The position numbers and the translations under genes are program-made. A stretch of 18,052 nt of DNA from an uncultured Oscillospiraceae bacterium (lineage in GTDB: Bacteria > Bacillota > Clostridia > Acetivibrionales > Acetivibrionaceae), in contig CAYPCH010000079.1 of the NCBI GenBank assembly GCA_964409165.1, forward strand, positions 1 through 18,052, given 5' to 3'. The notes beneath the pieces were generated by a model. That model ran no database searches, was not told where the DNA came from, and saw only the letters and a list, made by a program, of their open reading frames with translations. This document shows, piece by piece, positions 12,213 through 13,357 of this stretch (position 1 is its first letter; the number at the start of each line of letters is the position of its first letter).

Positions 12213-13357
12213 AATCCATTCTTTTCATTATACATACCTACAGACTTTTTTACTCTTGCCACTATCTCATCTGCAATTTTTTGAGGAGATAAGACTTTCA
12301 CATAAGGTCCTAGTGAAATAATATTCCGTATCAGATTCTCTTCCTCAAAAAGATAATAATTGAGTCGTATTTCATATTTATTATCCCCCAGATATCTGGC
12401 AGTTCTCTCCATTCCTGAAAAGCACATAAAGCACCTTTCCATTGCTGCCTTTTTATCCGTTACCTCCAAAATCACCGGCTCTTCTGAGTATTTCTGTTCA
12501 AAAAGCAGTTTTCTTGCTGCTTCTCTATTAATACCTACGTCTTCATCTACTATTCTTAGATCTGATAAAGTAAAAATATTGGCCATGATAGGCCGATTAT
12601 CATCCAATGAGTACATGGAGACACGAAATCTCCCATCTCTCATAGAGTATTCAATACTGACCGGCAGTGCCAGCCTGTTGCTATATACATTACCTTTTTT
12701 GTCTGTATTGCTGTACCTTATTGGCTTTTCCTGTATAAGTGCATTCAATATCAGCCGGAAATTCTTTTCATATGTTTCCTGCTCGACAATTGCAGGTAGT
12801 TTTATTATATTTGTGAGTTCAAAATACTCGTCTCTTATAGGAGAATCTACGTCAGCAAGCTCATTTTGAAGTTTGTCGAAGGTTTCTTTACTAAGAACCA
12901 TTCTGACCCCTTCCTTCTCTAAAAGTGCCTTCAACCAGGCTTTTTCAAGTATAGAAAAACGTAACGGGAGAGGCGGCTGGTCGTTTCGCTCCGCTACACT
13001 GCTCGCCATGCGTCCCGGCTGGTCGTTTCGCTCCGCTACACTGCTCGCCATGCGTCCCGGCTGGTCGTTTCGCTCCGCTACACTGCTCGCCATGCGTCCC
13101 GGCCTACCAGCATTCTCTATAGAAGGATAAAACATACCATCCTTTTCAGTTAATAGGTTTAAATTCTCATCAGTTTCACATTTATTTAAAACAAGGTCTG
13201 CAAATGACTTTTGATTCTTACCAATAACCTTCTGTTCAAACTCCCCCTCATCGACTATCCTCAGTATTTCACTTTTTGCTTTTCCATCGGCACACTCATT
13301 GATAATTCTGAATATCAACTGAAAGTACCTGTTTTTAACTTCACTGAACAACTCCAT
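12209..13357 (-). CDS. WYL-domain regulator paralog 1 (N-terminal region - 3x14-aa repeat linker - WYL - C-terminal WCX-like domain)
   Basis: WYL-like beta-rich segment ([34 protein letters not shown]) and C-terminal extension resembling WCX. Probable start at internal ATG 13357 (MELFSEV), overlapping the upstream gene's stop by 17 nt; the 13384 start in the supplied ORF is also possible. Confidence 0.55.
12974..13103. repeat. In-frame tandem repeat, 42 bp x about 3.1 copies, about 67% GC, encoding ([14 protein letters not shown])x3 inside the WYL paralog
   Basis: Exact period-42 repetition (cggctggtcgtttcgctccgctacactgctcgccatgcgtcc). GC content roughly double that of the flanking sequence. 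Confidence 0.9.

Follow-up and report, generated by a model that had tools for sequence, protein, structure and literature searches.

A tandem 42-nucleotide array in a clostridial WYL-family regulator gene and its dispersed repeat family

The window analyzed here is a stretch of 18,052 nucleotides (contig CAYPCH010000079.1 of assembly GCA_964409165.1) from an uncultured Oscillospiraceae bacterium. One of its genes, which encodes a putative PafBC/DriD-like subunit of a WYL-family regulator, contains three tandem copies of a GC-rich unit of 42 nucleotides (nt). This unit belongs to a dispersed, nucleotide-level repeat family of Hungateiclostridiaceae and related Clostridia. We consider it likely that a small dispersed DNA repeat of this kind was amplified locally to give the array, which would then not be a protein-level invention of the host gene. 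The original prediction, made from the sequence alone, had taken the anomalous base composition as a sign of a foreign or recently expanded insertion. That the array is an insertion stands; that it is foreign does not hold for a gene segment, nor is the array a private minisatellite, as copies of the unit are known from unrelated genes and other reading frames as well as from non-coding DNA and an element flanked by terminal inverted repeats. Given such a dispersed family, the GC anomaly reflects the element and not a segment of a foreign gene.

The array and its dispersed relatives

The predicted perfect, GC-rich, in-frame repeat of three 42-bp units is confirmed by Tandem Repeats Finder (TRF), by exact matching and by translation. 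TRF places the array at 12974-13103, with a period of 42, 3.1 copies, 100% matches and a score of 260. The sequence GGACGCATGGCGAGCAGTGTAGCGGAGCGAAACGACCAGCCG matches exactly three times in the window, always on the minus strand, compared with no match in 200 shuffles, and each of the three units is recovered by nhmmer with an E-value of 3.6e-13, although the model was built without the window's own units. Each unit encodes one and the same 14-residue peptide in unit frame 1. The GC content of the unit is 66.7%, in accordance with the predicted 67%, but the background had been set too low at 33%: the window has 36.3% and the host gene minus the array 36.7%. At third codon positions, the array has a GC fraction of 0.71, against 0.34 for the remaining host gene. 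The window unit has a TAG in sense frame 2, and the idea that it is open in all six frames was rejected for this reason. As predicted, the array separates the N-terminal region from the WYL domain: in an AlphaFold2 model of the host protein (41 homologs; mean predicted local distance difference test score, pLDDT, 75.7), residues 81-132 counted from M10 form a stretch predicted to be disordered, with pLDDT below 50, that encloses the entire repeat.

A search for the unit elsewhere, as proposed with the original prediction, found the family at a second site of the window and at many loci of related Clostridia. Family units are 42-43 nt long and consist of two arms, GG(A/T)YGCAT(G/A)GCGAGCA and GACCAGCC(R), which enclose a short centre that forms a hairpin and varies from one subfamily to the next. 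When one genome per species was scanned with the exact pattern ATGGCGAGCA-N14-AAYGACCAGCC, 31 loci emerged; one metagenome-assembled genome (MAG) contributes at least 16 of them and Pseudobacteroides cellulosolvens ATCC 35603 contributes 6. A narrower metagenome scan added 14 loci. Several unit loci per genome are present in P. cellulosolvens, OH_CBlB_339, OH_CDB_60 and an Acetivibrio MAG. Units occur bare or within a longer element, and most of the bare ones lie inside open reading frames (ORFs), whose products, checked with Pfam, are as different as a hydrogenase and a cobalamin enzyme (Table 1). The hydrogenase homologs are 470, 484 or 498 residues long. Furthermore, there are one antisense genic case and several non-coding cases.

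The longer form is an element of about 150 bp, similar to a miniature inverted-repeat transposable element (MITE), with terminal inverted repeats (TIRs) of about 29 bp (TTAGTCATGATCAAAAAATAACTTCCGCT...), an inner hairpin GTTGACTTAACTCGTCAAC (loci L007-L036) and the unit as its core. At least 16 copies are found in one MAG and several in P. cellulosolvens. Its central unit carries the perfect hairpin GTTTAGC-GAA-GCTAAAC. Variants have 73, 86 or 219 nt between the TIR cores, one lacks the core, and L015 holds about two units. The element has no match in Rfam. The family TIR has no match in the window, whose units are thus free of TIRs. A third form, type iii, combines the family arms with another perfect hairpin, GCAAGC-N3-4-GCTTGC. 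It is found in the WYL gene upstream of the host gene (see below) and in the intergenic array of L012, which mixes two subtypes, comprises about six units, 43-nt units included, and is situated just upstream of a terminator-like hairpin. At three further loci (L029, L045 and L050), a bare unit lies 0.3-2.4 kb from a match to group II intron domain V/VI (RF00029); here the unit may lie inside or beside the intron, antisense to it. A phage or plasmid origin of the units was rejected, as neither viral contigs nor the plasmids of PLSDB contain a match.

The second unit of the window is a single, partly decayed copy in the WYL gene upstream of the host gene. It is read in frame 3, and its 14 residues occupy a loop before the WYL beta-strands. 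The general family hidden Markov model (HMM), with the window sequences left out, gives it 4.8 bits, which is not significant; hence, its assignment is established via orthology and a subtype-specific pattern. The orthologs L003, L005 and L055 have a gap of exactly 14 residues at this position, while L002 carries a clear unit there. The pattern of the L012 array, GGTTGCATAG..GCTTGCGACCAGCC, matches the window once, precisely at this site, and never in shuffles.

Pair counts over 46 distinct units support a helix of unit columns 17-23 with 27-33. Columns 17:33 are GC in 24 units, AU in 18, GU in 4 and unpaired in none; columns 23:27 are CG in 37 and UA in 5. The covariation score is 0.255 compared with 0.155 in shuffles, none out of 500 reaching the observed value, and slid controls stay at or below 0.069. 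The three subtypes have distinct self-complementary centres at one and the same position. Many centres read GC-GNA-GC, a very stable DNA mini-hairpin motif, and folding is predicted for units of the MITE type and of type iii (z -1.3 to -1.7). The tetranucleotide GTAG requires a T in column 20, CGTC is confined to GGACGC variants, and the 46 units conserve neither of the two. At gathering threshold, Rfam has no match for the window or for any of 11 related loci; elsewhere, its matches are limited to group II intron domains and a dinG RNA, which lie at some distance from the units.

Table 1. Location of the array, related units, allele pairs and neighboring features. Coordinates refer to the window unless a locus is named; a slash marks the junction in an empty allele.
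Feature	Location	Strand	Sequence or frame	Basis or remark
Three identical 42-nt units	13058-13099, 13016-13057, 12974-13015 (reading order)	-	GGACGCATGGCGAGCAGTGTAGCGGAGCGAAACGACCAGCCG	exact match, TRF, translation
Tetranucleotide directly 5' of the array (sense strand)	13100-13103	-	GCCG	copies the unit 3' end ..CAGCCG
Position of the family hairpin, unit columns 17-33	12983-12999, 13025-13041, 13067-13083	-	GTGTAGC-GGA-GCGAAAC	imperfect, G.A and A.G mismatches
Single partly decayed unit, upstream WYL gene, residues 267-280	13836-13877	-	type iii centre GAAAGC-CCT-GCTTGC	
Host gene, PafBC/DriD-like WYL-family regulator subunit (putative)	12209-13357	-		ortholog alignment, AlphaFold2, Foldseek, weak Pfam WCX
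Upstream partner gene, WYL and WCX, 444 residues	13341-14675	-		Pfam WCX 52 bits, weak WYL
Bare unit, NiFe hydrogenase large subunit	L023, L030, L038		frame 1	
Bare unit, RlaP	L047		frame 1	
Bare unit, GNAT/DUF3795 protein			frame 2	
Bare unit, PD-(D/E)XK protein			frame 2	PDDEXK_2
Bare units, three copies, CbiG			frame 3	CbiG_C
MITE-like element of about 150 bp, examples	L027 3831-3948; L032 2572-2688			
Intergenic array, mixed subtypes	L012 7656-7919			
Hydrogenase gene with nested unit	L057 1001-2497			
Allele pair, host WYL gene			empty AAGCCA/CCT; filled AGGCCG(units)CCT	
Allele pair, hydrogenase	empty: Petroclostridium L058; filled: L038		empty GATCCG/GAAGCA; filled, plus one 42-nt unit	
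Allele pair, RlaP	empty: window 8112-8117; filled: L047	+ (empty)	empty TACCCT/CAAGCA; filled TATCCA(unit)CAAGCA	
RlaP segment missing from L001	6813-8524; L001 14486-14491			joins two TTAAAT repeats
Tpt1/KptA ORF, 109 residues	14795-15124	-		profile positions 75-176/177
Wadjet JetC (C-terminal part) and JetD	16265-18024	-		
Imperfect repeat, 21 nt x 4, in rhodanese ORF	2292-2377	+		CMxxPNK/CMHKxxK-type heptads
WYL pair and RNA-repair genes, A. thermocellus	L059, CP013828.1 381233-394285			

Copy number, insertion sites and nucleotide conservation

Some 120 homologs of the host protein were found, from Acetivibrio, Ruminiclostridium, Pseudobacteroides, Desulfosporosinus and others, and units were counted only in those for which the anchor motifs on either side were identified. 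The intervening segment measures 8 residues, i.e. no unit, in 51 proteins (7 residues in three more), 22 residues or one unit in 16, 36 residues or two units in three, and 50 residues or three units in four, the window among them; a few homologs retain partly deleted relics of a unit. Copy number thus varies between relatives, as had been predicted, in exact steps of 14 residues, and the ORF is intact in all alleles with 0-3 units. Every deep branch of the host-gene family has no copy; hence, the unit is an insertion in this gene and zero copies its ancestral state, in line with the original prediction. Neither a uniform copy number nor a position in a structured, conserved domain, the two outcomes named in advance as speaking against it, is observed: counts range from 0 to 3 and the array sits in the low-pLDDT linker.

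Variation is also seen over short distances. Over 16 kb, contig LSQX01137679.1 (L001) shares 99.6-99.9% identity with the window but has two units in place of three, a difference between two assemblies only. The closest relative without a copy, L004, is separated from the window by a synonymous divergence (dS) of 0.23; elsewhere, P0026 has no unit and P0008 and P0009 have one each, with flanks that are 95-98% identical. The three copies of the window are identical to one another, whereas arrays of other species are made up of diverged copies, so that the predicted recent expansion, or a homogenization, is supported.

Three pairs of filled and empty alleles (Table 1) differ by exactly 42 nt, small though this sample is. 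The unoccupied host-gene allele reads GGTAAGCCA/CCTCTC (L004, L056), and the empty site resembles the unit's own 3' end. No consistent target duplication is visible in the pairs, and the preceding bases do not regularly copy the end of the unit. A 9-bp duplication at the hydrogenase site, suggested by the protein order EAD-P-unit-EAD, was rejected, as EADPEAD is present even in the allele that lacks the unit. Among 16 independent sites, a small sample, about 9 have CC(A/G) as their left flank, often in the form A-N-C-C-R, which is the unit's own ending. In the hydrogenase gene of L057, a complete unit of another subtype is nested out of phase between columns 16 and 17 of a resident unit, which it interrupts after 5 codons. 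Slippage cannot create such an arrangement; hence, whole units insert. The resulting composite peptide, [KR]L[NH]SEQRSET[DE]RPA, is shared by the L057 hydrogenase gene and the WYL-partner gene of P0003; this points either to a recurrent internal target or to a mobile composite of 84 nt. With regard to a strand bias relative to replication, bare units lie on the G-rich strand at 16 of 21 loci, a count confounded with gene orientation; for cores of the MITE form the figure is 6 of 19.

The comparison of orthologs reveals that the signal of the unit lies at the nucleotide level, not at the peptide level. In the flanks of the host gene, dS is 1.1-2.8 and the ratio of nonsynonymous to synonymous divergence (omega) 0.05-0.10; in the units, dS is only 0.2-0.5 and omega 0.3-0.7. 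Synonymous sites are therefore 3-8 times more conserved in units than in flanks, and the peptide is under relaxed constraint. The units retain the GC-rich codons GCG, AGC, GAC, CAG and CCG in AT-rich genomes. In the A. thermocellus clade, decay has left an old single copy with 26/42 identity and 48% GC.

Origin of the array and competing explanations

How might a small dispersed repeat give rise to the array? Units would insert beside sequences similar to the 3' end of the unit. Any resident unit offers this preferred target at its own end, so that a further insertion beside it would produce head-to-tail arrays in phase; arrays of mixed subtypes such as L012 fit insertion beside existing units. 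Replication slippage between identical units might then alter the copy number, to three in the window and two in L001. The array would persist since the frame is kept and only a flexible tether between the DNA-binding and sensor domains is lengthened; its effect on the regulator is probably small. The purine-rich sense strand of the unit encodes a hydrophilic peptide. The least certain step is the movement itself, which probably takes place on single-stranded DNA by means of a hairpin-recognizing enzyme, in the style of IS200/IS605 or of the REP-associated tyrosine transposases (RAYTs) of repetitive extragenic palindromic (REP) sequences.

Several observations weigh against this account. No homolog of a Y1/HUH transposase was detected by tblastn in about 454 kb of fetched loci, a weak test with approximate IS200, IS608 and RAYT queries. 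The metagenome that holds L001 yields no other copy, in a scan that excluded the MITE-type centre. Bare units are few per genome and differ from one another by 4-8 nt, with no sign of a recent burst. The covariation in the centre may partly reflect two linked sub-lineages and not structure, and for the window unit itself the hairpin is not predicted (nearest-neighbor DNA minimum free energy -3.9 kcal/mol, z +1.1). Folded as RNA (201 nt), the array has no excess stability either (z +1.5 for the sense strand, -0.1 for the other), and a structured mRNA element was dropped on these values. The sense bias of genic units (seven sense, one antisense) is explicable by selection for hydrophilic peptides alone, recurrent presence at one site by the exchange of alleles through homologous recombination, and the count of three versus two in near-identical contigs possibly by assembly collapse.

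A more far-reaching version of the same account can only be offered tentatively, and we would not expect it to hold in full. According to it, the units are previously undescribed, ultra-short, coding-compatible mobile elements of Clostridia that bear a hairpin, move as single strands by means of an enzyme of the HUH/Y1 type, insert without duplication 3' of A-N-C-C-R, build in-phase arrays by targeting their own 3' end, excise precisely, and repeatedly create and remove flexible linkers in proteins. Their survival in ORFs would be due to a length that is a multiple of three and to a purine-rich strand that translates into disordered, hydrophilic peptides.

The original prediction favored a different interpretation: a private minisatellite formed in situ and kept by selection, in which slippage tunes linker length and WYL regulator activity in the manner of a contingency locus. 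We regard this as improbable. Copy number is indeed polymorphic at the site, both among orthologs and between near-identical contigs, the tether joins DNA-binding and sensor domains so that its length could affect allostery, and many lineages keep the insert in frame. Yet these 42 nt are also found outside coding DNA and, partly in other frames, within unrelated genes, so the origin lies elsewhere. Moreover, alleles without a copy are the majority, the peptide is under relaxed constraint and, as A. thermocellus shows, free to decay in old lineages, and three copies are far below the tract lengths with high slippage rates. In a contingency locus, a change of tract length switches a gene on or off through frameshift or promoter spacing; a unit of 42 nt is a multiple of three and provides no such switch. 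The proposed tuning of the regulator is accordingly unsupported.

It is very unlikely that the 14-residue peptide is a functional module, i.e. a short linear motif or a flexible spacer, which was selected and spread as protein. Frame 1 is the commonest (WYL partner, hydrogenase, RlaP, L037), the residues MAS..RNDQP recur, and the peptide is hydrophilic and predicted to be disordered. However, frames 2 and 3 give unrelated peptides (DAWRA..TTSR, GMHGEQ..ERPA) in intact GNAT, PDDEXK and CbiG genes, frame 3 is used by the window's own upstream gene, synonymous sites are more conserved than amino acids, and the unit is also present in non-coding DNA and in the MITE-like element.

An action of the units in the regulator mRNA, as a structured or cleavable element tied to RtcB, can be considered extremely unlikely. 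The gene is located in an RNA-repair neighborhood with RtcB, RlaP and an SPFH protein, units are also found in RlaP, removal of a whole unit, e.g. by cleavage and RtcB ligation, would preserve the frame, and intermediates of the stem compatible with G.U pairs are seen. Against this stand the unremarkable folding stability of the array, the lack of a match to an Rfam family and the units in hydrogenase, CbiG, GNAT and non-coding DNA, which are unconnected with RNA repair; splicing of units by RtcB was rejected because of these hosts and because the copy-number differences are encoded in the DNA.

An artefact of assembly or sequencing is barely credible: tandem repeats are easily mis-assembled and the count differs between two near-identical assemblies, but independent assemblies and samples (L001/L046, L052, L053) have the same unit at this position, other species have diverged arrays that can be assembled unambiguously, isolate genomes contain units, and old copies have decayed in frame. 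Two independent Logan contigs from other runs are identical to the window up to the array and both end 31 nt into the first unit, as expected where a tandem repeat interrupts a k-mer graph; the array is thus more than a product of one faulty assembly.

Known repeats, the host regulator and its neighborhood

With 3.1 head-to-tail copies of 42 nt and a copy number that differs between related genomes (the step from three to two being known from assemblies only), the array can be described as a minisatellite or variable number tandem repeat (VNTR). Dispersed units of similar size are the mycobacterial interspersed repetitive units (MIRUs), reportedly described originally by Supply et al. in 1997. 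MIRU-VNTRs are units of 40-100 bp in variable head-to-tail arrays that are oriented with transcription (PMC3635867). They resemble the present family in its many loci and in its head-to-tail arrays of variable copy number; but MIRUs are located between the genes of operons, where they overlap start and stop codons, whereas most bare units of this family lie in frame inside ORFs. The clostridial family, from a different phylum, is moreover distinguished by its hairpin centre, by nested insertions and by a relative with flanking TIRs. Rickettsia palindromic elements (RPEs) are selfish repeats that are found in frame in many unrelated genes at positions compatible with the protein fold (PMC10969869), much as the present units are in hydrogenase, RlaP, CbiG, GNAT, PDDEXK_2 and two WYL genes. 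Yet RPEs are about 100-150 bp long, palindromic throughout and present as one copy per site, in contrast to a unit of 42 nt with a hairpin of at most 7 bp and tandem arrays.

Other features recall the REP/REPIN-RAYT and IS200/IS605 systems, namely a short unit with a putative hairpin between conserved bases, an occasional location in ORFs and tandem head-tail clusters, as well as an apparent insertion without target duplication 3' of a motif related to the element's own end and a plausible precise loss (PMC3733652, PMC3333891, PMC6006769). The differences are considerable: the GTAG/CGTC tag is not conserved, copy number is low and not in the hundreds per genome, the arrays are direct and in phase instead of inverted doublets, the hairpin of the window units is degenerate, and neither RAYT nor TnpA was found in the loci by the weak tblastn test described above. 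PARCELs are intragenic tandem coding repeats with dyad symmetry, dispersed within and between genomes (PMC2996958), and share these properties with the clostridial units. They are, however, amphipathic protein-level domains of 25 residues that form long tracts in surface proteins, whereas the clostridial units are conserved as nucleotide sequence and read in different frames.

Typical MITEs differ from the window units, which have no TIR and whose filled and empty alleles show no consistent duplication, although the relatives of about 150 bp do have TIRs. BOX elements of pneumococci (boxA-boxB(n)-boxC) are modular and intergenic, with a central module of about 45 nt in variable copy number. 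To our knowledge, the boxB module has not been reported to spread alone into ORFs. The TIR-flanked relative, in which the 42-nt unit is the central module and which in L015 holds about two units, is comparable in design; BOX elements are also mentioned in the literature on RPEs (PMC10969869). None of these systems – MIRU, RPE, ORF-located REP, BOX or PARCEL – combines a 42-nt unit, in-phase arrays, all reading frames, nesting and a TIR-flanked relative. In a limited search of the literature on Pseudobacteroides or Acetivibrio, no description of this repeat family was found.

The ORF that contains the array extends over 12209-13384 on the minus strand, but its real start is M10, given that all orthologs begin with MELF in an alignment with 35 of them. 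The host protein accordingly has 382 residues, or 340 without the array, and its gene start overlaps the upstream gene by 17 nt. In the model, residues 1-80 form an N-terminal domain with helices and a beta-hairpin that resembles a winged helix; residues 136-380 comprise a helical bundle (136-209), a beta-rich domain and a C-terminal WCX domain. This predicted order agrees with the layout of WYL factors, i.e. an N-terminal winged helix-turn-helix (wHTH), the WYL domain of Sm/SH3-like fold and then WCX. The best Foldseek matches in the PDB are PafBC (1e-9) and DriD (5e-9), with BrxR and CapW also among the matches. Pfam scores WCX at 22.1 bits, below its cutoff of 23.9, and the WYL model finds no match. 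The gene had been called a WYL paralog in the original prediction. At the level of the fold this is supported; by sequence, its relationship to the neighboring gene is marginal, with a BLASTP E-value of 0.016, which is not significant, and an hhalign E-value of 1e-4 at a probability of 56%. Sequence comparison thus suggests that the two genes are distant paralogs in their WYL-WCX part.

Like PafBC, DriD, BrxR and CapW, the host protein has a predicted wHTH-like N-terminal domain, a helical linker, a WYL-like beta domain and WCX, and like pafB and pafC, the pair consists of two adjoining, translationally coupled paralogous genes beside stress or repair genes (PMC4012209). However, the host protein is only 10-17% identical to the solved structures, and, as mentioned, no WYL domain is recognized by Pfam. 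The neighbors also differ from those of PafBC-type factors in that they are RNA-repair and not DNA-damage genes: in the window, the pair has as neighbors RtcB, the SPFH protein, two genes for RlaP, a truncated Tpt1 and the Wadjet genes JetC and JetD, and in relatives it adjoins RtcB, RlaP, Ro60, Hen1 and Pnkp. Tandem pairing of both WYL genes is kept in L001-L006, L055 and L059. From this context, the host protein may be one subunit of a PafBC-like regulator pair for RNA-repair genes. In A. thermocellus (L059), the WYL pair immediately precedes Ro60/TROVE, a HEAT protein, Imm32, Hen1 and Pnkp, which ties the regulator family to several different RNA-repair cassettes.

Some further observations concern the neighborhood of the pair. 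The Tpt1/KptA ORF of the window is N-terminally truncated with respect to its profile, and the same 109-residue form is seen in L001, L052 and L053. The JetC fragment and JetD are situated directly upstream of the RNA-repair cluster; L001 contains a complete JetABCD along with a Macro-domain gene. On the other hand, L001 has no RlaP1 and lacks most of RlaP2 through the deletion listed in Table 1, and near-identical strains consequently differ in their set of RNA-repair genes. An imperfect 21-nt repeat follows the signal-peptide-like N-terminus of the rhodanese ORF.

In cellulolytic Clostridia, this repeat family adds blocks of 14 residues to unrelated proteins, among them regulators, a hydrogenase, a cobalamin enzyme and nucleases. 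The GC-rich block of the host gene should therefore be read neither as a functional domain nor as foreign coding DNA. In practice, such arrays disrupt short-read assemblies and could possibly serve as strain markers. If the units were indeed mobile, they would represent a compact natural system that inserts and removes disordered linkers in frame, and a new case in which the movement and targeting of very short hairpin elements could be studied.

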